Virus record (IMG/VR): IMGVR_UViG_3300027969_000051
Length of the DNA: 64,000 nt
Direction: 5' to 3' (one strand)
DNA from: an uncultured virus (IMG/VR IMGVR_UViG_3300027969_000051)
Taxonomy: Duplodnaviria > Heunggongvirae > Uroviricota > Caudoviricetes
Part shown: positions 2,227 to 61,891 of the stretch, in pieces
Position numbering within the stretch: the stretch's first letter is position 1
Layout of the letters: every line of letters starts with the position of its first letter
Program-made: the position numbers and the translations under genes
Notes under the pieces: generated by a model
The model's database searches: none
Seen by the model: the letters and a program-made list of their open reading frames with translations, nothing else
Told to the model about the DNA's origin: nothing

Positions 2227-2313
2227 AATTGTTCTCCTATATTAGCCTTTGTTTGCTTTATGTGCCTATTATTGTTTTACCAACCTTGATAAAACAAAAA
2301 GTGCATACATGTT

Positions 2314-2342: not shown

Positions 2343-2378
2343 GAGAAATCTTGCTCTAAATATGAGTATTTTACTCGA

Positions 2379-21997: not shown

Positions 21998-22428
21998 AAG
22001 ATCACATTGTTTGTAGCGGAGCATTATTCTACGCTAAATCAACACGTCGATTCTTACTACTACAAAAAGCACAAGGCAAACACGAAGGTACATGGAGTCT
22101 TGTTGGCGGAACTAACCATCTCGATGAAACTCCGTGGCAAGGATTACAAAGAGAAATAGTTGAAGAAATTGGCAGTATGCCAAATATTATAAAAACTATT
22201 CCTATAGAAACATTTGTCAGTAACGATAAAGTATTTAATTTTCACACGTATTTGTGTGTGGTTGCTGATGAATTTGTGCCTGTATTAAGTGCAGAACATG
22301 CAGGGTGGGCTTGGACTACCATTGATCGATCACCTAAGCCGTTGCATCAAGGATTGCGCAATAGCTTTTCAAGTAAAACTATCCGTACTAAACTTCAAAC
22401 AGTATTTGATTTAATAGATCTTATTTAA
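21979..22428 (+). CDS. Nudix hydrolase
   Basis: Nudix box GGTNHLDETPWQGLQREIVEEIG; EHAGWAW, PLH. Confidence 0.88.
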   Translation: MENRIIKDHIVCSGALFYAKSTRRFLLLQKAQGKHEGTWSLVGGTNHLDETPWQGLQREIVEEIGSMPNIIKTIPIETFVSNDKVFNFHTYLCVVADEFVPVLSAEHAGWAWTTIDRSPKPLHQGLRNSFSSKTIRTKLQTVFDLIDLI

Positions 22429-24700: not shown

Positions 24701-24702
24701 AC

Positions 24703-42675: not shown

Positions 42676-42695
42676 TTTTTATATTCCTCTGATAG

Positions 42696-42701
42696 TATTT
42701 A
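42696..42701 (-). promoter_or_regulatory. Late promoter core TAAATA
   Basis: TAAATA, GAGGA SD, ATG 42675. Confidence 0.7.
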
Positions 42702-42721
42702 TCATAACCGTATTTTGCGGA

Positions 42722-45700: not shown

Positions 45701-48700
45701 GTATTCTGTTGATGTAACATTTACTCGTATAACATTTGCAGATATTTTAAATGTTGTACTACTGCCGCTTGGAATACTGCTAATATAATATTTTGTACCG
45801 ACAGTAATGCCTGGATCTCCACTATAGGTATTGAATATAATTGGGTTCGTTGGGATCAATGATGCATTTGATGCCACAGTAAGCACGTTAGTACCTGATA
45901 CAGTTCTAGTAACTGTTACATTTACAAGACTGCCTGAGATCATAAAGTTAGTGGCGTTAACAACATCATTTACATAATATGTTATACCAGTATTAATTCC
46001 GCCAAAAGTACTACCGGTAAACTGTATTGGAAAGTTTGCAACCATGTTGGTTGTAGATCCTGTCAAATAACTATTATTAGAAGTAAAGTTAGCAATCATT
46101 GCCCCAGATGCAGTGGTCACCCCCCAGGCTGCGGCGCCAGATTGGAATGGCGCTGTTCCTAGTTGGATCGTTGTTTCATTAATAATTGCTGTTACATAAT
46201 ATGTAAATCCTGCAATTACAGTAGTAAATAGTGTTCCACTAAAAGTTACTGGCATATTAACAAACATAGCCGCGGTTGATGCCACTGTTAATGTGTTAGT
46301 AGTTCCGCCAGTTGATGCAGTAACCGTAACTTGGTTTAATGACGTTGCACTAACCACTGCAGAATAATATGTTGGTAAAAACTGAACTGGCATTCCTGTA
46401 TAGAATGCAAGAGTGCTTGCTGCCGGTGCAATAACAAATGTATTTGCCGGACTAGTGGTAGCAGTTATACCTAATGCAGTGAATGATTCTTTTAATACTG
46501 TTGCTGTTTTACTTGTTGTATCAAAGGAACTAATGTATCCATACTGTCCTGCACCGGTGCCGCTATTGATAAACACCCGCAATGTAAGATAGTTACTTGC
46601 AGTGTTAACATCTGACTGTGCAAACTGTATACTATCAGTATCGCCTGTCTGTGCATTGTTTGATGCGGTGAAGTATCCACTACCACCGACTACTCCGGTT
46701 GAGTCTCCGATAACCCGTGTCTGGAATACCGAGCCGCTACGAATTTCGTCACCTACAGTAATCGCACCGGTGCCTGCACCAGTTATATTAAAGTTTGCGT
46801 ACGATGTATACCTATTGTTTAAAGTTTGATAGTAAAAGCTCGGTGAGAGCGGTGTTGCGAATGTGCTATTGCCAATTTCTGCCTGTGCTCCGTAGATCAC
46901 ACTATATGTTCCACTCGCTCCGGTATATCCTCGTGGGTATATCCTAAATTGAACTTGGGTCATCAATCCGGTTGGGTCATACGTAGAGAACCACAATCTT
47001 ACCCAACCCTGTGAAGTTCCAATTTGTGCTTTGTAACTTGTGGGAGTTACGCCCGCACCAGAGCTGTTAGGAGTAACGACCCCTGTAGCAAATGTATAGG
47101 TTACACCGCTGGTTGCAGTAGTTGACCCGCTAAAAATTGCTTGTATATCTAGTTGTGCCGCAGTACCTTGATTTATATATACACTGAATGTATATGGCAA
47201 CGCACTACCTGCCGGTACATCGCCCGATGCAGGGTTGTCTGGTGCTACTTGTGTAACTACTTGATTGACTGCACTACCTGTTACCTGAGAAATATATAGT
47301 ATACAGTCGTTGATTCCTGATAGTCCACCTAATAGTGCTCCGGGAATTAAAATTAGGCCGCCTTGAACATATCCATCCCCTGGACTGTTAACTGTTGCTA
47401 CAAATGTTGTAGCAGTTACGGTAACGTCAAACGTTGCTCCAACTCCACTACCTGTTAGGTTATTACCAGACAGATTAGTATATGTTCCACCTGCTTTAGG
47501 TATTGCAATATTTTGATAGATGTAGCTGTCGCCGGCATTATTTGAAGTTGTGCCGTACACAGTCCATGCTTCAACTAATCCCGTTGGGGCTGTTGATATT
47601 TGTTGAACAGTAACGTTGCCATCTGTGGTCCATGATCCGGTATTAAATCCATTACTGTAATTTAAAAGATTAGTAGTTGTCGAATTGTATGCTTCTCCTG
47701 CGTTGGTATATAATAGTTTAAGTAATTTTCCAACACTACCAAAACTACTTGCAACTGTTGCTTGCACTTGTGTTGATTTATTGTAAATATATCCGGTTGT
47801 TGGAACTTCTGTAATATCATACCCTTCAGATATTGCACCGTAATTACCGTATGAACTATTACCATTGGCTGCTCGAATGCGGCCACCGCCTTCTGCAAAG
47901 TATCCAGTATACCCATAGTATGAGAACACACTAATACATTCAGTAAGCGCACCTGGGCCTGTACACCACACCCCGATACCGTCACTGACAATGTGTGTAA
48001 AGTCATTTGCTACTATAGATTTATTGCCGCCAGCATGTAGATTACCGTCAATCTTAAGAGCAGTACATCCGTTACCAAATGCTGTTACGTTCTGTATATA
48101 CGGACTACGACGGAAAATCCAAGCAGTTGTATCATTTATGCCAGTGCCTGGATCTAGCCCAACATACACTCCGCCAGTTGGTCGTTGGATTTCATATGCA
48201 TCTTGTGCGCCAAGTGTACCAAGTAAACCTGCTAGCGTTGCATTTCGCAATCCAGATCCATTTCGCATATAGAACATGCTCTTAACAGCGTCGCCACCGT
48301 AGACTAACATTGCTGTGTTTGCCGCCACAGATCCTGTAGCACTTGTAATAATAACTGGAGGTCCTGAACAAACAAACGGCACCGCGGAGAATGAAGCTGT
48401 TGCGTTGTTACTAATTGTTATTGTTGCAGAATTTGAGTTAACACTAAGAATCGTTGTGTTATCAGGAATTCCTAAGCCAGTAATAAATCCCCCAGCAACC
48501 AGGCCAGTTGTTGATGATAGCGCAGATACTGTTCCGCTACCGGATGTAATGTTACCTGTTATAGAAATACTAGGCACTGTACTTGCTGAAAATGTTGTCG
48601 GGGTTATTGATGCGCCGATTACATAATAAGTTGTTCCAGCGGTAACACCGCCAAGTGGCACAAATGTTACGTTTGCATTAATGATTGGTGCCGCAAATTG

Positions 48701-51700
48701 TATTGGGCAGTTATCGTACATGCCTGTAGTTCTGTAAACTGTGAAATAGTAACTGCCAAGTGATGCAGTTGTTGATGTACATACAGTGTTGATAGATACT
48801 GCTGGTTGAATTGTAACTCCTCGTAATTCTTCGCCGATGATTGCAGTATTCTCAGGAACAGAGATTGGTAATATTTCTGAGTATATTCCACTTTTAACAT
48901 TAATAGTTGTTGATATACCCGAGTTCGCTGACGGTATTAGTGCTTTACTTTTTGCAGTCAATGCCGAAGTAATGATAGACATCAAACTTGTAATTTGTGT
49001 GCTCGTACCCGCTTCAACAACGATTGCTGGATAAAACAACTGTGCAATCTGTAATGATGGAGCAACAGTATTGTTACTTTGATTCGTTGGGCTCAATACT
49101 GCTCCAGGTAATACATAAGTGGTAATCAACCCTAACAAATAATTTAATGCCGCGATGAAAAATGGCATCTCAGCAGTTACGGCTGCATTAGTGAATGTAG
49201 TTGAGCTTTCAATTGCAAAATACGCCAGTGCTGCCGCAACAGTTTGACTGTTACCGCCTCGAGTTATATCATATACGATTGCATCAATAACATAGCCTGC
49301 ATCTCTAATAGTTTTAGTTTGATCAAACACTGAGCTTGCCGAAAACGGCGCCGTGTTACTTGCTTTTTGTGAAAGCATCCAGTAATACATTTCTGTTGTT
49401 GCAAATTGTTTATTCTGATTTATAATGTAGGCGGCATTTTGATATAATGCGCCGGCCTTGGCTACTGAACACGCATAGGCAATAGTCTTCCAAGGCTTGT
49501 CCCAATCTAACCCCGGGTTAGAGTCGCTGCCTATAGAACTCGACACGTAGTACACCTTGCTTATTTGATGTAATTTTGCCCAGTTGGGGGTATTACTAGT
49601 ATTTCTTAAAACACTACTTGGTAATCCAATGTTAATGTCCGCATATGCATTGTTATTGTATGTTTCTAAATCCCCGATGGCATTCATAGCATTTTTTCTA
49701 GCGTGTGCAGATTCTAAAGTCCAGTAAGTTCCAGATGTATCTAAATCAGGGCGATTAGCAGGAAGAGCAGTATGTGTTTGAACACAAACATACGTGCCAT
49801 TTTGCCAAACAACTAAATCGCTTTGGACATATTTTTTTCCAACAGCAGTACCGGTTGATGATATTGCTGTTATGTTTCTGCCGTAACCGATAGCAGTGAT
49901 TGTAATGGTCAAGTCATTAATGCCATCAGTACCACCTAATGTTGACCCTAAAATCTTAACAGTATCATTGACTGTGTAATTTGATCCGCCTGCAACTAAT
50001 GTAACACTATACACAGGGCCGATAGCTGTTATATTATATGTCGATCCTGAACCCGATGAAGCAAAGTTAACAGGTGAAATATTTGAATACGAAGCAAGAG
50101 TAGTCCAGAACGAGTTCCAACTTTCTCCTGGAACTAGTAGCTTCCAATAGACCTGATTAATACTAGTGAAACTTAAATTTTGACCGTTGGTTAGAGTTCC
50201 GTCAGGTGGGTAGTTTAATATTAGGCTAGTGCCTGCGGCATTAGTTGAAGTAACTGCTTGACCTAATGTAAATCCGGCACCTTGAACAATCATACCAGGT
50301 AAAACTGTTACCCCGTAGGTTAACTGATAGCCGCCAGCAATAGTTGCTGGTGTGCCGCTTGAAGCAACTGTTTGACTAACACTGATTGTGTACGTGCCAG
50401 CAAGTCCTGCTGTAAAAAAATTAATTGTAGTTGTATTTAACGGGGCAGAAGTTGCTACACTTGCGCCTGCAAGATTTACTAATGGTATGCTTGTGCCGCC
50501 GTTTATGTATGTTGATCCTACATAAGTACCGACAGGAATTCCTGAAGCAACAATCCACTGCCCGGCAGTAATATTGGTAGCACTTGCTACAGTGACTATA
50601 CTAGCTCCACTCGATGCTGTGGCTGTAGTTGTTGCGGTGGCGCCGTTCGTTGCAGTTAATTGTGATGTTATATATGTGTTATCTGAGAATGTTCCGTTAG
50701 CAATACCGTATATTAAATATGCGGCATTTGGTAATATTGGATCACTTCCACCGCCAGTAACAGTTAGCGTTGTTCCTGAAGAATATCCGCTGAATGTTAT
50801 CTGTGGGCTGGTTATAGTTACAGGATTGCTAAGGGTAATACTGCTCACACCCACAGAAGCAACGGTAGTTCCAATAGGAATACCAGGACCGGTAATTGGG
50901 GAGCCTAGCGGAATTGATGCGTACCCTCCGGCTAATCCAATAAAGTTCGGGTTGCCTGGCCCAATTCCGGTGATAGTAGTTCCTGAGGCAACAAGTGATG
51001 CAAGGAAAGTACCGCCTACTTTTAGTGTAGTTCCGGAACTACCTGTAGAATTATAGTTCATTGCTACACTATAATCAGATGGATCTTGAGGAGCTAGGTT
51101 ACTGAATTGTAAGTCTGTCGAATTGTTGTCAACAAATGCTTCAAATAAATTACCTTTTCGTCTAACAACACTACCCACTTTATAGGGTTGATTGCTAGCC
51201 CACTCATCGCGCAATTCAAAACCTTGTACTAGTAAAGTCCATGCTGATGTAGCTGTTGACGGAATATTCCCTATGTTATTTGCCGTGATCGAAATGTAAT
51301 TAAATCCGCCATATAATACTGTATCGCCGACTTGGAATGTTATAGTACTGCTCCAGGTGCCGGCCATGTCCGACCCTTGCAGATACATGGTAAAACTGGT
51401 AGCGGCAAATACAGTACCTGAGGTATGCGGGGTTGTGCAGATGTATATATCTGGGTTTAATTTTACAAGATCGTTAAATTTATACCGAACATTGGCCGGG
51501 CTCCAGGCTCCTTTATATTCAACACCTTGGAATAAAATAGTCCATTTACCTAAGTCTGGTTCGAGTCCTATCCCTACATTGGCTGCGCTGGTATGGTTTG
51601 AATTACAAATATATACCATGCCGCCGTATTTTACAACATCGCCTATGCCATACACTGTGGCCGGTAACCATGTTGGTTTCCACGCATCAAATTTTAAATA

Positions 51701-52036
51701 TACTGACCAATTTGCTTCGTCAATAGTAGTTAATCCGGAAGTGTGCGATACTGCACATATATATAACTGTCCGCCAAATTTAACAATGTCTTTAACATTA
51801 TATAATGTACTGGCCTGCCAAGCATTTCTCCAAGTCTTTCCGTCAAGTACTAACTGCCAATAATTAGTTGGAGTCTGCGCAAGGTCTGCCGCAAATCCAG
51901 ATGAAGTATGTGGTACTAAACACACAAATGTACGTCCGCCAAAACTGACTACTGCGTCCTTATTATAAAAAGTAGCAGTGGTCCAGGCTCCGAACCATGT
52001 GTATCGTAATCGACTAAGTTTAAATTCTGCTGTCAT
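42722..52036 (-). CDS. Giant modular fibre/structural protein B (3104 aa), paralog of A
   Basis: Same architecture and ends as A (AEFKLSRLRY vs AEYKLGRIKF; RLT.HD.L.IG; TDQDGNF.VGNLFGVQQATG; PTQKAIK). Confidence 0.85.
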   Translation of the reverse strand: MTAEFKLSRLRYTWFGAWTTATFYNKDAVVSFGGRTFVCLVPHTSSGFAADLAQTPTNYWQLVLDGKTWRNAWQASTLYNVKDIVKFGGQLYICAVSHTSGLTTIDEANWSVYLKFDAWKPTWLPATVYGIGDVVKYGGMVYICNSNHTSAANVGIGLEPDLGKWTILFQGVEYKGAWSPANVRYKFNDLVKLNPDIYICTTPHTSGTVFAATSFTMYLQGSDMAGTWSSTITFQVGDTVLYGGFNYISITANNIGNIPSTATSAWTLLVQGFELRDEWASNQPYKVGSVVRRKGNLFEAFVDNNSTDLQFSNLAPQDPSDYSVAMNYNSTGSSGTTLKVGGTFLASLVASGTTITGIGPGNPNFIGLAGGYASIPLGSPITGPGIPIGTTVASVGVSSITLSNPVTITSPQITFSGYSSGTTLTVTGGGSDPILPNAAYLIYGIANGTFSDNTYITSQLTATNGATATTTATASSGASIVTVASATNITAGQWIVASGIPVGTYVGSTYINGGTSIPLVNLAGASVATSAPLNTTTINFFTAGLAGTYTISVSQTVASSGTPATIAGGYQLTYGVTVLPGMIVQGAGFTLGQAVTSTNAAGTSLILNYPPDGTLTNGQNLSFTSINQVYWKLLVPGESWNSFWTTLASYSNISPVNFASSGSGSTYNITAIGPVYSVTLVAGGSNYTVNDTVKILGSTLGGTDGINDLTITITAIGYGRNITAISSTGTAVGKKYVQSDLVVWQNGTYVCVQTHTALPANRPDLDTSGTYWTLESAHARKNAMNAIGDLETYNNNAYADINIGLPSSVLRNTSNTPNWAKLHQISKVYYVSSSIGSDSNPGLDWDKPWKTIAYACSVAKAGALYQNAAYIINQNKQFATTEMYYWMLSQKASNTAPFSASSVFDQTKTIRDAGYVIDAIVYDITRGGNSQTVAAALAYFAIESSTTFTNAAVTAEMPFFIAALNYLLGLITTYVLPGAVLSPTNQSNNTVAPSLQIAQLFYPAIVVEAGTSTQITSLMSIITSALTAKSKALIPSANSGISTTINVKSGIYSEILPISVPENTAIIGEELRGVTIQPAVSINTVCTSTTASLGSYYFTVYRTTGMYDNCPIQFAAPIINANVTFVPLGGVTAGTTYYVIGASITPTTFSASTVPSISITGNITSGSGTVSALSSTTGLVAGGFITGLGIPDNTTILSVNSNSATITISNNATASFSAVPFVCSGPPVIITSATGSVAANTAMLVYGGDAVKSMFYMRNGSGLRNATLAGLLGTLGAQDAYEIQRPTGGVYVGLDPGTGINDTTAWIFRRSPYIQNVTAFGNGCTALKIDGNLHAGGNKSIVANDFTHIVSDGIGVWCTGPGALTECISVFSYYGYTGYFAEGGGRIRAANGNSSYGNYGAISEGYDITEVPTTGYIYNKSTQVQATVASSFGSVGKLLKLLYTNAGEAYNSTTTNLLNYSNGFNTGSWTTDGNVTVQQISTAPTGLVEAWTVYGTTSNNAGDSYIYQNIAIPKAGGTYTNLSGNNLTGSGVGATFDVTVTATTFVATVNSPGDGYVQGGLILIPGALLGGLSGINDCILYISQVTGSAVNQVVTQVAPDNPASGDVPAGSALPYTFSVYINQGTAAQLDIQAIFSGSTTATSGVTYTFATGVVTPNSSGAGVTPTSYKAQIGTSQGWVRLWFSTYDPTGLMTQVQFRIYPRGYTGASGTYSVIYGAQAEIGNSTFATPLSPSFYYQTLNNRYTSYANFNITGAGTGAITVGDEIRSGSVFQTRVIGDSTGVVGGSGYFTASNNAQTGDTDSIQFAQSDVNTASNYLTLRVFINSGTGAGQYGYISSFDTTSKTATVLKESFTALGITATTSPANTFVIAPAASTLAFYTGMPVQFLPTYYSAVVSATSLNQVTVTASTGGTTNTLTVASTAAMFVNMPVTFSGTLFTTVIAGFTYYVTAIINETTIQLGTAPFQSGAAAWGVTTASGAMIANFTSNNSYLTGSTTNMVANFPIQFTGSTFGGINTGITYYVNDVVNATNFMISGSLVNVTVTRTVSGTNVLTVASNASLIPTNPIIFNTYSGDPGITVGTKYYISSIPSGSSTTFKISANVIRVNVTSTEYIGSLINCTSTVGFVPNQPIRFTGSTAGNIQPDFTYYILAVNDSTSFNISTQVGGTALQLSNVTSCLFGATTCPLPVTLTGAYITVTPTATGVSTGTTITVSSGVGIVAGMSVTGTNIGVGAKVDVSYVAASTTVPVTVANTGTVNTTVTITSGTMVGTSTATKTKLSLGQGAMTATFSTPLFGGVVQGTNYYINTFSSSNFTVASSLANVGVATVPLSSATGSMNVGATGWDHVVAGTPAVDTLDSTSVYFVEPRLIYSAPTFTQTSSGSTILLAPSNSYSYSAYGNGTWLAFANAGSTVASSTDGANWAQLTLAVNPTAWGAVEYGAGYFVAVTRGTSCIAVYSNSNGQSWKSVAMPSDSSWSQLTYGNGIFVAIATGTTKVAYSTTFGSSWSTSTLPAALAWTGLTYGAGLFIAISSGGSTVIPTAASGSAGTATLTFSVLGTAPFIIGQTIVVSGMTPSGYNGTYKVTGCNTTTVQYVNATTAAGSVFGTIIGNSVVAYSTNATTWNVSSTPNQTTWSSIDYGNNSFVAVSSSSSKASYTQDGINWYQSNLSFTADQIRYGQGVFVAIGNTSGVAWTSDSGLEWAQQSISNTTWGTMAFGVNSSGVGRWILLGGTNNGSYISAGIRTRARANIISNTITSITEFEPGSGYTSDPTLTIIDPNFSVPVVTQVRRSNNALASPTFVNRGVGYNTTSTAVITTGNGYSNSYQTGLTLIMNNLSKAPSVGDNLIITGIDQVYKVTSAVAVYGSVAPTLQANISISPAMTTALSPVDGTTVSIRSLYSQCRLTNHDFLNIGYGDFETSNYPGFPDAGYASTPNNQTVEVNYGRVFYSSTDQDGNFKVGNLFGVQQATGIVTLSASQFALSGLNSISLGGIAVGGSSTIITQFSTDGTFVANSDTILPTQKAIKTYLTSRLSQGGANTFTGQLIAGTVIVGGANKITSSVPQGTSGSVVNMTSKVYISGAAFAGVDGNMAALDFFMRGVVNRGSV

Positions 52037-52778: not shown

Positions 52779-55454
52779 TTATCCTAAACTTATAACGATA
52801 CCTAATGCGATATCTGTTGCTACACTGAATGTTACGCCGCCACTGCTTCCAGCAACGCTTTGCCACGCACCGGCTGCATTGAATACTTCAACTAATTGTA
52901 AATCTGTATTATAACGAATCATACCTGTTTCAGAGTATACAACAGAAGGTCGTTGCGCTGTTGTCCCAACCGGAACAACAACACCGTATGTACCTGCAAA
53001 TTTTACAGTTCCCGATGTTGTACCTGTAATTGTTGTTGAATTAACAGTTTGCACTGGGCTTACAAAATATGTACCAGTCGCACCAGTACCAGTTAACACA
53101 TTATTTTCGGCGTTAGTCGATGTGATAAACGCACCGCTTGCAACACCAGAACCACTTAGTGCCATTCCGTTTGCAATCGTTCCGGTAACTGTACCAGATA
53201 CTGTCATAGTTACCGGAGTTGATGTAATAGATTGACTGTTAACAGTCTGTGTAGTATTTAACGTCCAGCTACTTGATGCGCTTGTTCCAGTTCCACTTAT
53301 ATTTGATACAACATACGAACCTGTTGAAACTCCTGATCCGGTAATTACACTTCCAATAGATATACCAGTATTGCCTGTACCAAACGGAGATGTGTTACTA
53401 TATGCCACATTGCTGCCACCGCCTTGTGTAACTGTTTGAATTCCTGAAGTATCTGTTAGTATGCTTGTGCTTGTACTGGCCAATAATAACAATTTTGTAT
53501 TAGTGATTGACGGCAGTTGACCTACAGGGATCGTAATTGTTGATGCTGTTGGGTCATAAACATTTGAACTAGTAGTGATACGCAGATTAGTAATCTGGCC
53601 TGGAAATAACCAAGTCAACCCCTGTTGTACTCCGACATAATTAGTGTATCCGGTGTAGTTAGTGTTATTTGTAATAGTGCCGGTTGATGATCTAGTGCCA
53701 TTGATAAACACTGTTTCAACTCCTGAAGAGTTTCTAGTAACTGCTACATGATGCCATGTATTGTAAGGTAACGTTGCTGTGTATAAGTTGTTACCACCTG
53801 CAGTTGATGTAACTCTTATACCGGTTGTTCCGACAGTTGACACAGCATAACCGCCAGTACTTGTTGATCCAATAAGGGCGGCTTGCCCAGATCCAGATGC
53901 TCCTGTTTGATAAAAACTACATTCAAATGTGTAGGCAGTGCTGGCAAACTGCATGCCAGGAGAAAATGTCAAGTACTGATTTGTACCGTTGAATCCTAAA
54001 CTTCCTCCAAACGCATTTGACGGTACAGTTGACACAGTTAGTGTATTACCTGCAATGCTAGCTGTAAATATTGCGCCAGTAGTTGATGTAATAACGCCGG
54101 TAAATGATGCTGTTCCTGTTGCTTGTTGGAAGGTAGTTACTGCGTTAGCCACTGTGTTTGTTACAGTATTGCCTACAAATTTTAAGTTACCAATTTGAAT
54201 ACCACCGGTGCCAGTAGTAGCTAGATTAATGTCAGTATTAGTGTTAATTGCACTAATTGTGTTACCAGTGATATCTAATCCTGCTGTTTTAAAATCAACA
54301 GCATTTACATTTGTCACACTTAGATTGACAGCATTGAGTGTATTTGCGTATACGTTATTCCAAAATAAGCTACCTACTTGTGTAAGTCTAATTGTTGCAC
54401 CCGAGCCGCCGGGCAATGTTAGTACATCATTTAAAGTGTATCCAGTACCTGGAGTTGCTACGGTCACGGCAGTAACAAGCCCGCCAGTTATTGTAGTTAC
54501 TGTTATTGTTAAATTTTGTGTAGGAGTTGTGCCACCTAGGCTTGCACCAGCAATAACGATCGTATCACTGGCTGCATAACCCGACCCTGGAGTAGTAACA
54601 GTGATTGTAGTTACACCGGAATAATTTGTTCCTGTTCCAGTTTTTCCAATGGTAAATTGTGCACCAATACCAGTTCCACTTGTAGATAACTGAGTTACTA
54701 GTGTGTAACTAAATGCTATACCGATAGCAGTACCTGTTGGGCTACCTGCAACTGTTAGTTGTCCGTTGGCCGTTGCTGTAAGTGTAAATGTTGTTGCAGA
54801 TCCTGTGCCGCCTGTCGGAGTTACTACTGATCCGTTTACATATCCAGTACCTGCTGTGATTACTGTTGCTAGTTGAGCTGGGCCAACGCCTTGCCCTAAA
54901 TTATATGTGTTAGTGGTTGCTGGTAATATGTTACTATTGATTTCACCTGCAAAGGTAATCGTATCAGTTACTGCATCGCCTAGTACAATATTGCCGTCAG
55001 CAGTGATTGATCCTGTTGCGTGTAAATTACCAGATACTAATGTATTAGCATTAAGATTAATTTGCCCAGTACCGTTAGGTGTTACATTAATATCACCATT
55101 GGTATTTGTTGATGCAATTACATTGCCGGTAAGACTTAAATTTCCAACTAACGCTGTTCCTTGATAAACAGTGGCATTAGGACCAGTTGGGGTAAATGTA
55201 ATTGTAGAATTGTTACTAGATACTGTACTACCTGAAAATGTCAGTAGTCCTAGTTGTGCTGAGTTGCTAGCATATATGTTGGTAGTACGGGTTGTTCCAT
55301 TAACTGTTAGGTCATTTGTAGGCGTGGTTGTATTAATGCCGACGCGGCTATTAACAACATCCAAGTAGAGAAGGCTCGTCTCGAAGGCTAAATTTACACC
55401 ATTACGCTGTAAATTATCCTTTAAGAGCGGCCCTGAGATTCGACCAACAGCCAT
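52779..55454 (-). CDS. Tail fibre-like protein with LamG/ConA-like lectin domain
   Basis: SLGFNGTNQYL, TFEC.FY, NTWHHVAVTR, FPGQITNLRI, NTKLLL; C-terminal PVGTTAQRP..GMIRYNTD. Confidence 0.8.
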   Translation of the reverse strand: MAVGRISGPLLKDNLQRNGVNLAFETSLLYLDVVNSRVGINTTTPTNDLTVNGTTRTTNIYASNSAQLGLLTFSGSTVSSNNSTITFTPTGPNATVYQGTALVGNLSLTGNVIASTNTNGDINVTPNGTGQINLNANTLVSGNLHATGSITADGNIVLGDAVTDTITFAGEINSNILPATTNTYNLGQGVGPAQLATVITAGTGYVNGSVVTPTGGTGSATTFTLTATANGQLTVAGSPTGTAIGIAFSYTLVTQLSTSGTGIGAQFTIGKTGTGTNYSGVTTITVTTPGSGYAASDTIVIAGASLGGTTPTQNLTITVTTITGGLVTAVTVATPGTGYTLNDVLTLPGGSGATIRLTQVGSLFWNNVYANTLNAVNLSVTNVNAVDFKTAGLDITGNTISAINTNTDINLATTGTGGIQIGNLKFVGNTVTNTVANAVTTFQQATGTASFTGVITSTTGAIFTASIAGNTLTVSTVPSNAFGGSLGFNGTNQYLTFSPGMQFASTAYTFECSFYQTGASGSGQAALIGSTSTGGYAVSTVGTTGIRVTSTAGGNNLYTATLPYNTWHHVAVTRNSSGVETVFINGTRSSTGTITNNTNYTGYTNYVGVQQGLTWLFPGQITNLRITTSSNVYDPTASTITIPVGQLPSITNTKLLLLASTSTSILTDTSGIQTVTQGGGSNVAYSNTSPFGTGNTGISIGSVITGSGVSTGSYVVSNISGTGTSASSSWTLNTTQTVNSQSITSTPVTMTVSGTVTGTIANGMALSGSGVASGAFITSTNAENNVLTGTGATGTYFVSPVQTVNSTTITGTTSGTVKFAGTYGVVVPVGTTAQRPSVVYSETGMIRYNTDLQLVEVFNAAGAWQSVAGSSGGVTFSVATDIALGIVISLG

Positions 55455-55460
55455 TATTGC

Positions 55461-55581
55461 TCCCGTATACCCCGTGTTTCACGGTTAACCAAATTTGCAT
55501 TTTCATGCGCATCCTTACGGCTCTTTGCTGGTTTACCACAGTTGAATATCGCAAAAACTTGGTCAGTCTTTACAGTATTAG
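55461..55581 (-). ncRNA. Candidate structured 5' leader RNA (multi-stem, unassigned)
   Basis: GACCAAGUUU/AAAUUUGGUU 10-bp helix enclosing UUUGC/GCAAA and GCAU-GAAA-AUGC; then CCGUG-AAA-CACGG; lies between a late promoter and the SD. Confidence 0.55.
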
Positions 55582-55587
55582 TATTTA
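55582..55587 (-). promoter_or_regulatory. Late promoter core TAAATA
   Basis: gcTAAATAc, about 127 nt upstream of ATG 55454. Confidence 0.65.
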
Positions 55588-55600
55588 GCTGTTTTGGTTT

Positions 55601-56674
55601 TTATAGGCCGAAGATGATACTATAGAGAGTTGATAGGTCTTGAATTTGTGCAGTTGTTAGTGATGTACTTGTGCCGCCTACTGGTTGCCAAGTAGTACCA
55701 GAATATACTTCACCGTATCCTAGATCAGTATTGTAACGCATTTCGCCGATATCTGGAATAGGGTCTCGTTTTACTGTAGGGCCTGCCGGAATTGTTATAG
55801 CTTTAGTTCCGACAAACTTTACATACCCTTGACTAGTGCTAGATATTGTATAATTTCCTACTAAAGGAATATAAATGTTACTGCCTTTTATATAGTTAAC
55901 AGAATTAAATTTAACTGTTCCGGTGCCGTTACCCTGCAACAATATACTATTGATCCCGTCAATATTAGTAATCGTGTTTCCGGTGGCTGTAATATTCCCT
56001 ACGTTTAAAGTGGCTGTTACAGAGTTAGTATTACTTGATAGATTTATAGTCCCTGGAATATTTGAATAATATGTATAGATGTTATTCCACTGTAATGAAG
56101 AAGAACCTAAATCGTAAGTGTTAGTGATGTCTGGTGAAATATTACTAGTAACATCGGCTGCAAAAGTTATGCGATCACTCGTAGAATCTCCAAACTGAAT
56201 ACTGCCGTCAAACGTAATATTGCCAGTTGCATGTAGGGTTCCGTTGACTAATACATTGGTATTTAAATTTACTTCACCTGTTCCGTTAGGAGTTATATTA
56301 ACGTTAGAGTTAGTAGTCGTGCTACTAATTGTATTGGTATAAGCATAAAGATTTGCCGTGCTTAACCCGGGCGTAGCTATTCGTGGATTTATTTGATTAG
56401 GACTAATAGTTATATTATTTCCTAATACGTGTTGAATCGTACTACCAGCGACAATAAAATTGCCAATATCTGCTGTAGCGTCTACAATCCAATTGGTTGA
56501 ATTGATTGCTGTCGGAGTATAAAGATCGTTAACCGGGGTTGCAGAATTAAAGCCAACTCGGTTTTTAGTTACATCAAGATATAGAACTTTAGTATCGAAC
56601 GCAAGATTTTGGCCGTTACGTTTGATATTATCTGCTAGTAACGTACCACCTATTCTACCTAGTTCTCGCCCCAT
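55601..56674 (-). CDS. Tail fibre-like protein, short paralog of 52779-55454
   Basis: Shares GRI.G.LL.DN..RNG.NLAF...LYLDV N-terminus, LHATG.IT.DG.I..GD motif and GEMRYNTD C-terminus. Confidence 0.8.
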   Translation of the reverse strand: MGRELGRIGGTLLADNIKRNGQNLAFDTKVLYLDVTKNRVGFNSATPVNDLYTPTAINSTNWIVDATADIGNFIVAGSTIQHVLGNNITISPNQINPRIATPGLSTANLYAYTNTISSTTTNSNVNITPNGTGEVNLNTNVLVNGTLHATGNITFDGSIQFGDSTSDRITFAADVTSNISPDITNTYDLGSSSLQWNNIYTYYSNIPGTINLSSNTNSVTATLNVGNITATGNTITNIDGINSILLQGNGTGTVKFNSVNYIKGSNIYIPLVGNYTISSTSQGYVKFVGTKAITIPAGPTVKRDPIPDIGEMRYNTDLGYGEVYSGTTWQPVGGTSTSLTTAQIQDLSTLYSIIFGL

Positions 56675-56689
56675 GGTAGACTCCTAATG

Positions 56690-58192
56690 TTACTGGTCAA
56701 AACCAAGTAGTGCTGTGACAACTTTTCCGTAGGGTACTGGGCTAGTAAATTGTAGAAAGTAACCAGAACCGGATTGGGTTGCTTCGGTTATTGTGATGCT
56801 AGCTCTTGCGGCTATTGTTGCGGTTATAGTTGCATTATTTAAAGTAATGCTAGTCAATGCTCCGGTTATTGCATCAACAGTATAGCTACTAACTGTTGTA
56901 CCTGCTTGTAAGTTTGCACTGCCGGTAACGGTTGCTCCGACAAAATAGATACTAGATCCTGGAACAGTTGCTGGAAACAATGCTGAATTGCTGGTGATAG
57001 TTCCGCCAACAGTCATCGTGCCTGTAGTGGTGCTTGCAAATGTTACTGAGCTGGTTGTAGAAGCTGTGACAGTATAAGTTCCGTTGTATCCTACAGGAGT
57101 CATGCCAGTCACTGAAATAACATCATTAATTGCAAACGGATTTCCGCCCTGTGTGGCAAACCCTAAAGTTACAGATGTTCCGCTACCAGTAATACTTCCA
57201 CTTGCTACTTGTTGTGGGACGTTGATTGCAAAACTACTGCCTGTTATTGTTATTGGAGAACCAACTGATGCAACCGTTTGACTGTTGTTAACAGTGTAGT
57301 TTCCAGTGCCGCCGGTGCCTGTACCAAATGCGCTGATAAAAGTTCCCGCTGATATCGAGCCGCCAGTTATTACTAATCCTAATCCGATTGCACTAGAAGT
57401 TAACGCGGTAACTGTTAAAGTTGTTCCTGAAATATAACCTGTGAATACCGCGTTGTTAACTGCTGTTACCTGTGTACTAGTAACTCCAGAACCTGATAAA
57501 GTCATTCCGACTGCAATACCTGTACCAGAGGTTACTGATAAAATTGTTCCGCTTGCCGCGCCTGATCCGTTACCAATAAAACCTGTAACAGATACTGAGC
57601 CGCTACTACTTGCCGATGTAACTGGCAAACTAGTACTAAAGTATAATACTGTTGATCCTGAACCGGCTGCGGCACTAAGAGTTCCGTTATATGTTTGTCC
57701 AGTTACAGACGGATTTTGTACCACTGTATAGTTGGTAGTGTTTAATTGTAACACGTTTTCAACTACAACTAATATATTTTGTCCGCCAAACTGTCCTGCA
57801 CTCTGACCGCCACTACCTGGAACATTACTTGATGTTTTTGTAGGATCATATGAAGTACTAAGTGGTCCAAACGTAGTTGTTACACCGTCGCCTGCACCTA
57901 GATTTTGTTGTGTAATAGGAGATGCTTCTTTATATTTAAAGGCACGCCATTTGCTACTTTGATATCCTTCAAACTCTGCTGTCTGACTATTATATCGAAT
58001 CATTCCGTTGACCGGGCTACCTGGTTGGGCGGCAGTATTACCAATAGGCACGACTAAACTATTAGTCACACTCATGACAACATTTCCAGCAATAGTAGGT
58101 GCGGTAGCAATAGTTCCTGCTGTAGGATCTACATATAATGAAGGATCATTAGCGATTCTTCTATTAAGAGATTGACGTTTTAAATATCGCAT
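56690..58192 (-). CDS. Modular fibre/baseplate-associated protein
   Basis: PIGNTAAQP..GMIRYNS..EFEGY; GDGVTTTF; VVVENVLQ; shared Thr-rich modules. Confidence 0.75.
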   Translation of the reverse strand: MRYLKRQSLNRRIANDPSLYVDPTAGTIATAPTIAGNVVMSVTNSLVVPIGNTAAQPGSPVNGMIRYNSQTAEFEGYQSSKWRAFKYKEASPITQQNLGAGDGVTTTFGPLSTSYDPTKTSSNVPGSGGQSAGQFGGQNILVVVENVLQLNTTNYTVVQNPSVTGQTYNGTLSAAAGSGSTVLYFSTSLPVTSASSSGSVSVTGFIGNGSGAASGTILSVTSGTGIAVGMTLSGSGVTSTQVTAVNNAVFTGYISGTTLTVTALTSSAIGLGLVITGGSISAGTFISAFGTGTGGTGNYTVNNSQTVASVGSPITITGSSFAINVPQQVASGSITGSGTSVTLGFATQGGNPFAINDVISVTGMTPVGYNGTYTVTASTTSSVTFASTTTGTMTVGGTITSNSALFPATVPGSSIYFVGATVTGSANLQAGTTVSSYTVDAITGALTSITLNNATITATIAARASITITEATQSGSGYFLQFTSPVPYGKVVTALLGFDQ

Positions 58193-58527
58193 TATACTGG
58201 AATTGTGCTTATAACAAAGTTTAATACAGTAGTTACACTACTGAATGCGACAATCGTATCGTTTAAATCTAATACTAGTTTTTCTTGATCTAAACTTACC
58301 GTTTCGCCTGCTGGTATATTAAGTGCGTTAACAATCATGTTGGTAGTGCCTGCTGTGCCTGCTACACCTGCACTGTTAGGTACTGCATACACGGTTACAT
58401 TGGCAGCAGTTGCGCCATAGTTACAAATAAGCATGGCCGTTATAGCATTTCCAATTTGCGGGGCGGTCACTGCACTAGTGTATACTGTGGTGTTTGTAGT
58501 GCCGATTAGCGTTGCTTTTAGTGCCAT
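58192..58527 (-). CDS. Small beta-rich virion protein (~110-aa family)
   Basis: VYTS..AIT.MLICN..IPAGETV..EKLVL..NDTI. Confidence 0.75.
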   Translation of the reverse strand: MALKATLIGTTNTTVYTSAVTAPQIGNAITAMLICNYGATAANVTVYAVPNSAGVAGTAGTTNMIVNALNIPAGETVSLDQEKLVLDLNDTIVAFSSVTTVLNFVISTIPV

Positions 58528-58536
58528 GTTCTATCC

Positions 58537-59835
58537 TTATAATAAAATACTTAACAATAATGCTCTCTTTCTACTTATCAATTCGTCTTGGACTTGAACT
58601 GTAGAATTAGTAATATATAATCCTGTTCGTCCAGGACCTATAGTAGAACTTGAATACAACTTAGTTTTGCCGGCAGTGTATGCTGGTGTATTCCATGTTT
58701 GGTCGTCTAAATTTAGTACAGCATTTAGTTCAACATTATTATTAGTTGCAGTTAACACTAGGTTATTACTGCTGGTGTTTGTTATTGTGTCAGCATTTAA
58801 TCTGACATTGTCTTGTGTAAATCCGCTGTTGTTGAATACTGCTCTTAAGGTGCCGTTTGAGTACCAATTTATTACTCCAATACCGCCTAAGATAGTTATC
58901 GGTGAGCCTACACTAGCCACTGTTTGACTATTATTAATAGTCCATGTGCTAGCGCCGCTGGTGCCGACGCCACTTAGATTGCCTGTAATTTGTGTACCTG
59001 ATGATATACCAGCACCGCTGATATACACTCCGGTAGTGATAGTTCCTGTTACGCCACCTGTTACATATAGCGTTGTGCCAATTGTATATCCAGTAAATGT
59101 TGACTGTGATGTTGCCGTTGCAGTTATCTGAACAAATGCATTATTGGTCAACGGATATTGCAAATTGTAAACAAGTGCGATACCTTGACCGCCGCCTGCT
59201 ACATATGTTGATGCAACATAGTTATTGAGATATTGTACGTTTGGAATATGATATGGTTGTAAGTTAGCCGCGCCATAATTATATGCCGAATTTAATATTG
59301 TGTGACCGCTGAGCCCTATAGTTCCGCCTGAATTAACAATGGCTAGATACTTTGTACCACCCTGCATGTCAAATATTAGATCACCAGAATTGTCACCTGC
59401 AATCGATCTAACTTGAATTCCAGAAAGTGTTCCAGCATTACCAGCAATAGCCTGTGCTGCCGTTACAGTTTTTAAAACAAAGCTACCATTGACTTCAGCC
59501 GATGTTGATGAATCGTAATGTTTAATTTGTTCATTAAACATAAGTCTAGCCGCATCACCAATGCCCCGACCAATTTCATAACCACCTTCATAAAACAATG
59601 TATCTGGAATCGATGGTTGACTTAACCCATAGTTAACTGTAATTACATTGTCTTTGATTGTAGTATTAGTGCTTTCAACGTAGGTTGTTAAACCTTTAAC
59701 ATCAAGATTACCGATGATAGTTACAGTGCCGTAACTTCCGCCAGAGGTCGTACCGGTAGTATCAAAATAAATGTTACCACCGTCTTGAACCTGTAGTCTG
59801 TAATCACCACCGCTGACTTTTACTATTCTTGACAT
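58537..59835 (-). CDS. Fibre-like structural protein
   Basis: GNLDVKG.TT.VES..TTIKDNVITVN..GG.EIGRG motif; shared Thr-rich module. Confidence 0.75.
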   Translation of the reverse strand: MSRIVKVSGGDYRLQVQDGGNIYFDTTGTTSGGSYGTVTIIGNLDVKGLTTYVESTNTTIKDNVITVNYGLSQPSIPDTLFYEGGYEIGRGIGDAARLMFNEQIKHYDSSTSAEVNGSFVLKTVTAAQAIAGNAGTLSGIQVRSIAGDNSGDLIFDMQGGTKYLAIVNSGGTIGLSGHTILNSAYNYGAANLQPYHIPNVQYLNNYVASTYVAGGGQGIALVYNLQYPLTNNAFVQITATATSQSTFTGYTIGTTLYVTGGVTGTITTGVYISGAGISSGTQITGNLSGVGTSGASTWTINNSQTVASVGSPITILGGIGVINWYSNGTLRAVFNNSGFTQDNVRLNADTITNTSSNNLVLTATNNNVELNAVLNLDDQTWNTPAYTAGKTKLYSSSTIGPGRTGLYITNSTVQVQDELISRKRALLLSILL

Positions 59836-59877: not shown

Positions 59878-60906
59878 TTAAGCGTTTTCTACTAGTAATG
59901 AATCACCCAATACTGCGGCATTCATATTCCATTTAACTGCGGCGCCGGTTGCAAATGCTGTACCTGTACCACGAGTTACTGTAGCCTTACGTGCTGTGAT
60001 CTTAGTAGCAAAATAATTTCCGCCAACAGAATCAGTAAACTTGATACTGCCTTCACCTGCGGCTGTTGCCACTGATGATTTTAGTTTAACAATACCTGTA
60101 CGTGTACCGTCTGTTACTTTGAAACGATTTGTTGAAACTTGTTTGATAACGTCGACTGTAGTTGCAGAACCACCAGTTAAGTATGCTGTCATGATGATTG
60201 CATTTTCTTGATTTGTAGTTGATCCAACGTTACCAGTACTTACAGTCAATGCCGCTGTTACTGTTAATGTACCTTGTGTACCTGTTGACAATGTAACGGC
60301 CGGTGCTGTTGTGTAACCAGAACCTTTTTCAGTAATTGTAATGCCAGTAATTGTACCTGCTGCCGCTACTGCACCAACAACTGTAAGCACAATATCGTTT
60401 GTTGATGTAACACCACCAATTAGTGCACCGTCAATGGTAATTGTGTTACCAACAGCGTATCCAGTACCTTTTGTAGTTGCTGTGATAACTGTTAGTACAC
60501 CACCAGTAGCATAGTTAGTACCTGTTGTAGCTTTGGTAATTGTGAATACTGCACCAGTACCTGAACCGTTTGTTGCTTTTTGTACTAGACCAGTATATGT
60601 ACCTGTTGCGGCTGAGCCAGTACCAGTTGCTGTAAATGTTGATCTATCAGTACCAGATGTTCCTGCGGCTGCTGTTAAAAATGCACCTGCTGGGCCTACT
60701 ACTAAACTACCTACTGCACGTACACCAGTTGGTATAGTTGGAGTTGCAATGCTAATTTGTGTTAATCCAGCTGTATAGCTTGCTGAGTTGTTTGCGGCAC
60801 CTAATGCAATGCTTGCAATGCCTTCACCGCCGATTTTATCATCGGTAGTGCCTGTGGTACCGACGTTTCGGTTACCAAAATATTTCTTACTTAGAGGACG
60901 TCCCAT
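59878..60906 (-). CDS. Thr/Gly-rich structural protein (possible capsid or tail decoration)
   Basis: MGRPLSKKYFG N-terminus, GSGYTTAP.V motif, IKQVS..RFKV; strong AAGGAG SD. Confidence 0.75.
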   Translation of the reverse strand: MGRPLSKKYFGNRNVGTTGTTDDKIGGEGIASIALGAANNSASYTAGLTQISIATPTIPTGVRAVGSLVVGPAGAFLTAAAGTSGTDRSTFTATGTGSAATGTYTGLVQKATNGSGTGAVFTITKATTGTNYATGGVLTVITATTKGTGYAVGNTITIDGALIGGVTSTNDIVLTVVGAVAAAGTITGITITEKGSGYTTAPAVTLSTGTQGTLTVTAALTVSTGNVGSTTNQENAIIMTAYLTGGSATTVDVIKQVSTNRFKVTDGTRTGIVKLKSSVATAAGEGSIKFTDSVGGNYFATKITARKATVTRGTGTAFATGAAVKWNMNAAVLGDSLLVENA

Positions 60907-60919
60907 TTTATTTTCTCCT

Positions 60920-60989
60920 TATGAAAACACAGCGTTCTAGGCTGTACGCGGTTAGATTTCCGCATAAAACTCACCCTATGTGAGTCATA
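60920..60989 (-). ncRNA. Candidate four-way-junction 5' leader RNA (unassigned)
   Basis: UAUGA/UCAUA closing stem around hairpins CUCAC/GUGAG, UAUGCGG/CCGCGUA and CAGC/GCUG; fills the gap between promoter and SD. Confidence 0.6.
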
Positions 60990-60994
60990 CATTG

Positions 60995-61000
60995 TATTTA
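60995..61000 (-). promoter_or_regulatory. Late promoter core TAAATA
   Basis: Overlaps the TAA stop of the upstream gene. Confidence 0.65.
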
Positions 61001-61891
61001 TGCGTAAGTGATTCTTAAGGCAACTTGACTAAGATATGCTAAATCTCTGTGCGGATAGGTGGCATTACTTTGAAAACTGACCACGACTCCAAACGTAGGA
61101 TCAGCTACATCTGAAGCTGTGAGTGCTGTACCCCATAGATCTGCAGGACCTCCGTAAATACTAAAATCACCGACTGGGTCTTGAGGGGTGGTGAAATCTC
61201 CGGTATTCATATCAGTTTGCACAGGATTTATAGTGCTAGCAAGATTGTTACTGTTAGCAATTTCTACGCCGTTTAGTACTAATTTAATTTTTAAATCTTG
61301 TATTCTACCGGCACGTTGTACGTTAAGAGCTAGTTCTATTCCGGCTACTTGAGTTAGCCCAGGGACTTGAATACTGTACCCTGTTATTGCTATCTGCACT
61401 TTGATTTGTAATACTGTGTCGGCTAGAAATGCTGGTTTAACTACATTATTCCACCAACTACGAAGATTCGTACTGCCCTCAGATAATAAGAACCATTGTC
61501 GAGCATCGGCAGCAGTGATGGTTCCGGAGTTGTTGATATCTCCGTATCTAAATCCGCTAACTGGATCTATTGTTCTTAAGAAATTGTATAGTAATGCACT
61601 ACTATATCCTTGCGAAATAGGTATAATTTGCTCAGAAATAAAGAACAACAGTTGAGATTCAGTGTATGAGCTATTGTATCCAGTACAGTATAATTCACTA
61701 GTTGTACTTAAAAACTTTTCCATCCATAATCCGCTGATAGTGTACAGTGGTTTACTGCTGATTGCACAGTTATTTTCTGTAATAATATTTTGTGTTGTGA
61801 TCCAATCGATACTAGGATATCCTGTAACTTCGTTAGGAATGTTTACATTAGTTAAAATTGTTGGATTTAAAAAAGGTGTAGTGGTGGTCAT
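60998..61891 (-). CDS. Hypothetical structural protein with dockerin/EF-hand-like insert; paralog of the adjacent gene
   Basis: LYTI.GLWMEK, AGIEL, YG.P.DLWG..LT..DV, QVALRITYA shared; insert contains GDINNSGTITAAD. Confidence 0.75.
   Translation of the reverse strand: MTTTTPFLNPTILTNVNIPNEVTGYPSIDWITTQNIITENNCAISSKPLYTISGLWMEKFLSTTSELYCTGYNSSYTESQLLFFISEQIIPISQGYSSALLYNFLRTIDPVSGFRYGDINNSGTITAADARQWFLLSEGSTNLRSWWNNVVKPAFLADTVLQIKVQIAITGYSIQVPGLTQVAGIELALNVQRAGRIQDLKIKLVLNGVEIANSNNLASTINPVQTDMNTGDFTTPQDPVGDFSIYGGPADLWGTALTASDVADPTFGVVVSFQSNATYPHRDLAYLSQVALRITYA

Follow-up and report, generated by a model that had tools for sequence, protein, structure and literature searches.

Introduction

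The mRNA leader of gene 32 in the phages T4, T2 and T6 contains a pseudoknot which is bound by gp32 and acts as an autogenous translational operator. In E. coli, operators of the type found in rpsO and the alpha operon can trap or exclude the 30S subunit, and the H-type pseudoknot aptamers SAM-II, preQ1 and guanidine-III are similar in size to the core of the RNA described here. This RNA is the leader of a fibre-like gene in a 64,000-nucleotide (nt) stretch of DNA from an uncultured virus of the Caudoviricetes (IMG/VR record IMGVR_UViG_3300027969_000051), and the whole stretch is called the window below. Tail fibres decide the host range of phages, and to our knowledge very little is known about the control of fibre amounts in T4-like phages beyond the shared late promoters. 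The original prediction, made from the letters of the window, had placed a non-coding, structured leader in front of this fibre gene. As described here, a leader of this kind, tied to one fibre gene, is borne out by covariation and by its linkage to the open reading frame (ORF) in all 138 leaders with enough downstream sequence, and its fold is a different one.

Results

A conserved structured RNA upstream of the fibre gene

The gap at 55455-55600 on the minus strand is 146 nt long and lies between the TAA of a 357-amino-acid (aa) ORF and the ATG of an 891-aa LamG ORF. Judged from comparison with its relatives, the leader in this gap is a conserved, structured, non-coding RNA with a fold other than the one first drawn. 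Its elements, in order, are the (A/C)TAAATA motif, a 5'-proximal hairpin (P1), a pseudoknot formed by the stems S1 and S2 with two optional hairpins (P3 and P4) in its loop 3, a further hairpin (P5), the Shine-Dalgarno sequence (SD) and the AUG (Table 1). The core is an H-type pseudoknot, because S1 lies across S2. The consensus of this core can be written as A-C-X-G-U / G-G-U-A / A-A-C-C-N / G-C-Y-A, followed by loop 3 and by A-A-p3-p4-G-G-U-U-A-Z, after which come P5 (CCGUG-NAA-CACGG), W-G-U, 8-15 nt, GGAG and the AUG.

Table 1 Features of the fibre gene leader and its two flanking genes, listed in the direction of the minus strand.
Feature	Coordinates	Strand	Remarks
Upstream gene, 357-aa fibre-like paralogue	55601-56674	minus	gap begins directly after stop TAA 55603-55601
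CTAAATA, late-promoter-like	55582-55588	minus	T4-type, NATAAATA class; TAAATA (55587-55582) invariant in 138/138 aligned leaders
P1, 5'-proximal hairpin	55548-55576	minus	stem 55574-55565/55559-55550 plus A55576-U55548; loop GACCA 55564-55560; covariation
Pseudoknot, 5' half	55526-55540	minus	S1 UGU 55540-55538, loop 1 GGUA 55537-55534, S2 AACC-A 55533-55529, S1 GCA 55528-55526
P3 hairpin, AGCC-GUAA-GGAU	55511-55522	minus	optional insertion in loop 3
P4 hairpin, GCAU-GAAA-AUGC	55497-55508	minus	second optional insertion in loop 3
Pseudoknot, 3' strand of S2	55487-55492	minus	U55492 pairs with A55529; U55491 bulged; GGUU 55490-55487
P5 hairpin, CCGUG-AAA-CACGG	55472-55484	minus	flanks A55485 and G55471
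Translation start region	55452-55464	minus	SD GGGAG 55464-55460, AUG 55454-55452
Codons 3-5, UUGGUC	55442-55447	minus	candidate partner of P1 loop GACCAA (second long-range pseudoknot); hypothesis
Codons 10-11, GCUCUU	55423-55428	minus	candidate partner of SD flank GGGAGC 55464-55459; hypothesis
Downstream gene, 891-aa fibre-like protein	52779-55454	minus	Laminin_G_3 domain; conserved N-terminus MAVGRISGPLLK; ATG 55454-55452

Loop 3 ranges from 3 to 44 nt among the relatives. In 57 of 138 leaders it is reduced to a minimal UG-Y-A without P3, and in the others it holds P3 with or without P4. A hairpin is predicted at the P3 site in 68 of the 70 distinct long loop-3 sequences, with stems that vary in both sequence and length. 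Of these loops, 37 have at least 32 nt, and all but one of the 37 have a second predicted hairpin (P4), again with different stem sequences. Loop 1 has only 2 nt, and other bases, in one sub-clade (L352, L356 and L373), and P5 is replaced by GGGA-CAGGA-UCCC, covarying to GGCA/UGCC, in a divergent clade in which some contig names begin with TARA_. The unpaired nucleotides of the main family are near-invariant in loop 1 (GGUA), in the A-rich end of loop 3 and in the flanks of P5, where the two positions co-vary as A..G or U..U. The first paired base of P1 follows TAAATA by 2-9 nt in 122 of 128 leaders.

A 46-aa ORF starting with TTG in the gap was considered as a conserved small ORF and was excluded because the insert lengths of loop 3 (3-44 nt) are not multiples of three. 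No tRNA or tmRNA was found.

Distribution among aquatic phages

Leaders were collected from IMG/VR by three exact-pattern scans. The promoter block gave 8 loci, the B-block GGTAAACCNGCNAAGAGCC gave 112 stretches, including a coding false positive (L098) and one that ends at the contig edge (L106), and the C-block GGTTANCCGTGNAACNCGGNGT gave at least 120; from these scans, 138 distinct leader versions were parsed. A covariance model (R1; 109 positions, 20 pairs) found a single copy in the window (55468-55587, minus strand, 110.1 bits, E-value 2e-26), the next match being at 14.2 bits (E-value 0.54), and it found one copy in each of 100 sources tried, with scores of 67.6-119.4 bits.

A second sample, free of RNA-pattern bias, was anchored on the protein. 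The first 80 residues of 23 family members were aligned (A5) and metagenome contigs were scanned; at least 655 stretches matched, of which 642 encode relatives, and 80 loci were kept. R1 located the RNA directly upstream of the fibre gene in 73 of these 80 loci, and three of the 7 loci without an R1 match have only 11, 5 and 2 nt of upstream sequence. The leader RNA is present in hundreds of aquatic phage contigs. The leader-less homologues in L343, L363, L377 and L386 have a plain ATAAATA, about 25 nt of untranslated sequence and an SD of the GGUGA type, and these loci (about 370-400 in each locus) are natural controls.

Among GenBank phages, the leader DNA and the 891-aa protein gave no match, or chance matches only, and in IMG/VR clear orthologues of the protein were found on two contigs (L001 and L002). 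There the gap before the orthologue (MAVGRISG...) is 119-168 nt and shares long blocks with the gap of the window. The orthologue in L001 shows the 891-aa gene to be a mosaic, with 78% identity over residues 1-187, 53% over residues 807-891 and an unrelated middle. Just upstream of it lies a paralogue (50% identity) with a gap of only 14 nt before it. This paralogue, which directly precedes the leader, has an N-terminus of the GRISGPLL type, and C-terminal ...LG endings recur in the upstream genes of the relatives.

An Rfam search, which had been suggested as a check of the original prediction, returned no family match. With Rfam 15 over 54900-56200 and E-values up to 10, there were three chance matches, none on the leader strand, of which the best was to snR36, on the opposite strand (16.9 bits; gathering score 50), and 20 family members searched at E-values up to 1 gave 0 matches. 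The RNA has no match among the genomes of 185,579 bacterial and archaeal species (one genome each), where the pattern gave 8 hits, of which 4 reached E-values of 1 or less with R1 (18.4 bits or less) and 4 were unmatched. A limited search of the open-access literature found no paper describing this leader.

Covariation of the stems

Compensatory changes support P1, S1 and S2, and P5 covaries weakly, at one pair in the main family. In a MAFFT alignment of the 138 sequences (A2), the X-Y pair is UA in 130 sequences, AU in 7 and GC in 1, the U5-G15 pair is UG in 131 and UA in 7, and the N-p3 pair is CG in 83, AU in 40, GU in 7, UA in 2 and something else in 5. P5 is paired in 98.3% of cells, with a change from CG to GC in 2 sequences. 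Over the whole alignment 99.1% of cells pair, compared with 94.5% in shuffles (0/500). Changes at the N-p3 pair and at the X-Y pair were both seen in several architecture classes, implying that they arose independently.

For P1, a model-fitted alignment (A3) was used, which leans towards the model R1 to which it was fitted. In A3, changes on both sides occur in 9 of the 10 pairs of P1, 90.5% of its cells pair, and the whole model (P1, S2 and P5) pairs in 94.8% of cells, compared with 77.2% in shuffles and 33-46% with slid partners. In addition, all 128 distinct P1 regions fold as a hairpin, with a mean of 10.5 base pairs (bp) and a mean z of -3.05 against mononucleotide shuffles, and 85% of them lie below -2.

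The weaker matches of the protein-anchored sample (28-58 bits) vary nucleotides that were formerly invariant, and S2 appears there in the forms UACC:GGUA, AGCC:GGCU, CACC:GGUG, AACU:AGUU and GGAC:GUCC. In the alignment of this sample (A6), the S1 pairs are UA 50, AU 13 and CG 1 at X-Y and UG 50, UA 9 and CG 4 at U5-G15. For S2, pair 1 is AU 56, UA 6, CG 1 and GC 1; pair 2 is AU 53, GC 8 and other 3; pair 3 is CG 63 and AU 1; pair 4 is CG 63 and UA 1; and N-p3 is CG 36, AU 14, GC 7 and GU 6, so that all five core pairs of S2 have changed on both sides. Taking 9 pairs together (3 of S1, 5 of the S2 core and 1 weak extension), 7 changed on both sides, compared with 3.5 +/- 0.8 in shuffled data (0/500); the covariation score was 0.346 versus 0.104, and 90.9% of cells pair, compared with 31-44% with slid partners.

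Other pairings were examined and rejected. A local hairpin GG-UAAA-CC with U5-N14 pairing was ruled out, as N is C in 84 of 138 leaders (a U5-N14 mismatch), one sub-clade is without the GG, and N pairs with p3. A helix CUGUG/CACGG competing with P5 shows no covariation and is mismatched where X is A or G. When 34 long forms were aligned with MAFFT and folded with RNAalifold, misalignment of P1, P3 and P4 led to a poor consensus that lacked compensatory pairs, and the covariation reported here is based on anchored columns and on the covariance-model alignment instead.

Linkage to the start region

Wherever 90 nt or more of sequence is available after the leader (138 leaders), a start codon follows (ATG in 137, GTG in 1) and opens an ORF that carries G-[RQK]-I-[STA]-G close to its N-terminus; two others were too short downstream to be counted. 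The leader-to-ORF distance is 13-22 nt in all 138, the P5 flank lies 15-17 nt from the start codon in 123 of them, and the spacer between the end of GGAG/GAGG and the AUG is 4-7 nt in 135.

The first codons of the gene are also constrained. CUC encodes Leu-6 in 111 of 125 sequences, UUA encodes Leu-7 in 105 of 132 and CCG encodes Pro-5 in 101 of 110, while the six codons of Leu-11 are used about evenly; Gly-0 is GGU in 127 of 132, and AGR codons are found for Arg-1 in 2 of 130 compared with 26 of 132 for Arg-13. Synonymous variation is therefore suppressed at CCG-CUC-UUA and at GGU-CGN. Two pairings, offered here as hypotheses only, could explain this suppression, one between the P1 loop and codons 3-5 and the other between the SD flank and codons 10-11.

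Codons 3-5 are exactly complementary to the P1 loop GACCAA. Among the 148 leaders whose loop contains CC (GACC-type), the four core pairs are kept in 141-148. Compensatory cases are few, namely GUCCA/UGGAC in L237 and ACCUA/UAGGU in L139 and L360. For the second pairing, the SD flank occurs in the forms GGGAGC, GAGAGC and GGAGUG, which are complementary to GCUCUU, and the best SD duplex falls at codons 10-11 in 94 of 132 leaders. A pairing of the loop-3 AAGAGC with codons 10-11 was ruled out as the cause of the synonymous conservation, as these codons are kept just as well in the minimal forms without AAGAGC (38/56) as in the others (58/82). In the clade without the GACC loop (L096, L154, L171 and relatives), the 3' strand of P1 carries GAUUGGUC, the string of codons 2-5 of the gene, which may be a built-in mimic of the start region.

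The original fold

Every string named in the original prediction is present and complementary as described, including AUACU/GGUAU and CUGUA/UACGG. Its three small hairpins CC-GUAA-GG, GCAU-GAAA-AUGC and CCGUG-AAA-CACGG are retained as P3, P4 and P5, whereas the multi-stem junction closed by a 10-bp helix is not supported. The 10-bp enclosing helix joined GACCAAGUUU (55564-55555) with AAAUUUGGUU (55496-55487). Its inner half pairs in 51% of cells, and its outer half (GACCA/UGGUU) is complementary in 91.5% of cells, with both sides conserved and no covariation. The covariation score of the whole helix is reached by 458 of 500 shuffles. The 5' strand of this helix is the loop plus the 3' strand of the covarying hairpin P1. 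It was a reasonable reading of a single sequence, because removal of the 5' strand of the first hairpin gives a minimum-energy fold with this helix. The further helix UUUGC/GCAAA with UGG/CCA pairs in 70.1% of cells, compared with 70.9% in shuffles, and the two registers proposed for the 5' end, one of which was to touch the SD as a switch, pair in 53.6% and 69.6% of cells, equal to shuffles.

Promoter-like motif and operon

T4 late transcription starts 6 nt after the promoter motif. From this 6-nt rule, the transcript is predicted to start probably near 55576, at the base of P1. The CTAAATA motif is probably a late promoter of the gp55 type, similar to TATAAATA in T4 and NATAAATA in T4-like cyanophages, the forms given in PMC2984593. 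In the window, [AC]TAAATA on the coding strand lies 6-33 nt before 8 other gene starts and about 90 nt before one more. Here the motif is 128 nt from the AUG, compared with 6-33 nt at the others within 33 nt of a gene start, and therefore the leader is exceptionally long among the late-motif leaders of the window. A long structured late leader was also seen upstream of the 342-aa gene (59878-60906), where a 91-nt gap (60907-61001, minus strand) with ATAAATA at 61001-60995 is predicted to form four hairpins in its minimum-energy fold (-24.1 kcal/mol, z = -3.49, 0/200 shuffles).

The leader was originally placed at the head of an operon that includes the 3104-aa gene, and the gene order agrees. 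The next [AC]TAAATA on the strand is at 42702, shortly ahead of the second giant gene, and therefore the unit comprises the four genes of 891, 110, 126 and 3104 aa. It is 12.8 kb long, with gaps of 3-15 nt between its genes, and includes a gene of 9.3 kb. The same order of leader, fibre gene, two small genes and giant gene is found in L001 and L002. A separate ATAAATA precedes the second giant gene (3272 aa, 32857-42675) by 21 nt, and no structured leader is present there. Terminator-like sites are not enriched in the operon (10 found, 10.1 expected).

Neighbouring genes

The window is a piece of a T4-like myovirus that encodes the gp23 major capsid protein, sheath, tube, large terminase, UvsX and a gp32-like single-stranded DNA-binding protein (SSB), together with two giant fibre proteins of 3104 and 3272 aa. 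The genes of the latter are adjacent on the minus strand (32857-52036) and match phrog_9851, a tail fibre protein, with E-values of 4e-139 (3272 aa) and 3e-129 (3104 aa). In the 891-aa protein, Laminin_G_3 (PF13385) covers residues 489-626 (E-value 2.5e-13), and searches of this fibre protein against PDB and NCBIfam gave no match. Fibre-like paralogues of 432, 500, 357 and 891 aa stand in tandem in the window (55601-59835), and likewise in L001 (1526-6195). Auxiliary genes for a 2OG-Fe(II) oxygenase, a Nol-like carbamoyltransferase and a NUDIX hydrolase lie amid the structural region (22411-26493).

Discussion

We propose, with a probability of about 55%, that the leader is a cis-acting translational control element of the fibre gene. 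An action on translation initiation is suggested because the spacing to the AUG is fixed, the early codons are constrained and the linkage to one gene is strict. In addition, a conserved shape is favoured over a fixed small-molecule pocket because loop 1 and P5 vary between clades. The rigid module of P1, pseudoknot and P5, located directly 5' of the SD, may bend back onto the start region and control the gene through this contact.

In the proposed mechanism, the leader would form the 5' end of a late phage mRNA that starts about 6 nt after CTAAATA, near 55576. The RNA would fold at once, with the 5' hairpin P1 formed first and then the H-type pseudoknot, and P5 would follow, probably stacked under S2, while P3 and P4 in the third loop are dispensable. 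The folded module of P1, pseudoknot and P5 ends 15-17 nt before the fibre AUG, and the P1 loop on codons 3-5 together with the SD flank on codons 10-11 would lead to throttled or gated translation initiation. The target would be a low-copy virion protein expressed from a late promoter that is assumed to be as strong as the others. A more specific and clearly tentative form of this mechanism is a gated switch of a new class, in which the pseudoknot would keep codons 3-5 paired with the hairpin loop and codons 10-11 paired with the SD until a trigger opens the lock. The trigger could be a protein of the phage or the host, a metabolite or the ribosome. If this is true, opening of the lock would time or dose the fibre that sets the host range, across a large group of T4-like phages from aquatic habitats.

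Several observations weigh against translational control by the leader or against the proposed contacts. Four homologues lack a structured leader, and so the gene can do without it. P5 ends about 6-8 nt before the SD and therefore leaves it uncovered. The P1 loop and codons 3-5 are complementary in 93.2% of the protein-anchored cells and in 92.2% of shuffled ones (10 of 500 shuffles reach the observed value), with one double change; the shuffled value is this high because both sides are nearly invariant. A CC-containing (GACC-type) loop is absent from 33 of 181 distinct leaders, and the P1 loop could instead pair with UGGUU of the 3' strand of S2, the outer half of the helix rejected above, which is complementary in as many as 91.5% of cells and likewise shows no covariation. 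The duplex between the SD and codons 10-11 is no more stable than duplexes formed with shuffled coding sequence (mean z -0.45), and its register varies by SD type. The DNA is present in freshwater metagenome sequencing runs; the runs listed with the sequence are 12 DNA runs, with no RNA run among them. Finally, the minimum free energy of the gap is -30.9 kcal/mol, with z = -1.24 and 25 of 200 shuffles as good or better, and z rises to +0.37 when 60 nt of coding sequence are added. The original prediction had named a non-significant folding score with no covariation as the sign that the leader was not a structured RNA; the folding score is indeed non-significant, and the covariation is strong.

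One of the other explanations is a riboswitch; the original prediction had spoken of a riboswitch-like or protein-binding RNA. The pseudoknot core would then bind a small molecule or ion and alter the access to the fibre start region, as the near-invariant unpaired nucleotides described above for the main family, the position fixed just 5' of the SD, the tolerance of variable hairpins at one place only and the presence of several short ACC/GGU elements able to pair alternatively would allow. We consider this unlikely. The controlled gene encodes a structural virion protein of one fibre family (138/138; 73/80) rather than a metabolic or transport protein, and both loop 1 (2 nt in L352, L356 and L373) and P5 vary by clade. 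Moreover, the mutually exclusive folds that a switch would use, with the P1 loop on GGUU or on codons 3-5, show no covariation beyond shuffles, and no Rfam riboswitch was matched at E-values up to 10.

Stem-loops at the 5' terminus stabilise bacterial mRNAs, as in ompA. By analogy, the hairpin and knot might protect the 5' end of the late mRNA or define a processed end as a passive stability or processing element, and translation would be unaffected. P1 lies within a few nt of the predicted transcript start in all clades, and P1 is universal while its loop is not, both of which agree with this explanation. However, such an element needs neither a near-invariant pseudoknot nor a fixed distance of 15-17 nt to the AUG, it leaves the suppressed early synonymous sites unexplained, and short plain leaders precede other late genes in the window, the second giant fibre gene among them. 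We therefore judge it to be about as improbable as a riboswitch.

A cis-acting antitermination RNA, comparable to HK022 put or Bacillus EAR, would modify the polymerase to read through the 12.8-kb operon. The location directly after the promoter-like motif at the head of a long operon would be appropriate for this role, and the order of leader, fibre gene, two small genes and giant gene recurs in L001 and L002. On the other hand, the next giant gene (3272 aa) has its own ATAAATA and no structured leader, terminator-like sites are not enriched (10 versus 10.1 expected), and the tight spacing of the leader to the SD and the AUG points to translation, which makes antitermination very improbable. 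Least probable of all is that the leader has no RNA function and serves as a DNA homology arm for swapping the variable middle of the fibre gene between co-infecting phages, since the mosaic gene and the joint conservation of leader and N-terminus would be expected from it but the compensatory changes in P1, S1 and S2 and the varied yet self-complementary P3 and P4 would not.

The leader is a concrete RNA with which post-transcriptional control of virion stoichiometry can be tested, and it is an uncatalogued family that can be added to Rfam. Its natural variants are a ready-made mutant series, which comprises minimal forms, forms with P3/P4 inserted, a loop 1 of 2 nt, an alternative P5 and homologues without the leader. 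Particularly, the minimal form is a natural module of about 50 nt and can be useful for structural study.

IMG/VR intergenic regions have already been mined for structured RNAs, and PMC10690425 reports 8,495 'DNAVirus_X' candidates and mentions the gene 32 leader pseudoknot. The fibre leader may be among these candidates. In the readable tables of that paper, neither the motif strings nor the four numeric IMG/VR contig prefixes are present, and of five candidates upstream of Laminin_G_3 genes that were looked up there, three are marine and of other lengths. The available main text describes no function or structure for the fibre leader family.

Compared with known systems, the fibre leader resembles three groups of regulatory RNA. 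Like SAM-II, preQ1-I/II and guanidine-III, it has a small H-type pseudoknot with conserved loop nucleotides in a 5' untranslated region beside the SD. In contrast to them, its context is non-metabolic, its loop 1 and P5 vary by clade, and it has no Rfam match. The E. coli rpsO (S15) and alpha-operon (S4) operators likewise have a pseudoknot, which lies against the ribosome-binding site of the gene that they control. In those operators the knot includes the SD or the AUG, whereas the knot module of the fibre leader ends 15-17 nt before the AUG and its contact with the start region is hypothesised; in addition, the gene is a phage structural gene and Rfam gives no match.

The gene 32 leader differs from the fibre leader in several respects. 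The fibre leader precedes a LamG fibre gene, has no sequence similarity to the gene 32 leader, contains the additional P1, optional P3/P4 and P5, and shows no sign of an SSB partner or of a long unstructured A/U tract. In the window, the gp32-like gene (1252-2226) has a separate structured leader. The gap upstream of this SSB gene is 152 nt long (2227-2378, minus strand) and carries CTAAATA at 2334-2328, and the RNA from 2340 to 2227 is predicted to fold into two strong hairpins (-28.3 kcal/mol, z = -5.77, 0/200 shuffles), which makes it a candidate gene-32-type autoregulatory leader. The fibre leader and the gene 32 leader nevertheless share several features. Each belongs to an mRNA of a T4-type phage, is conserved among related phages and carries, close to its 5' end and before the ribosome-binding site, an H-type pseudoknot; like the gene 32 leader, the fibre leader probably acts on translation.

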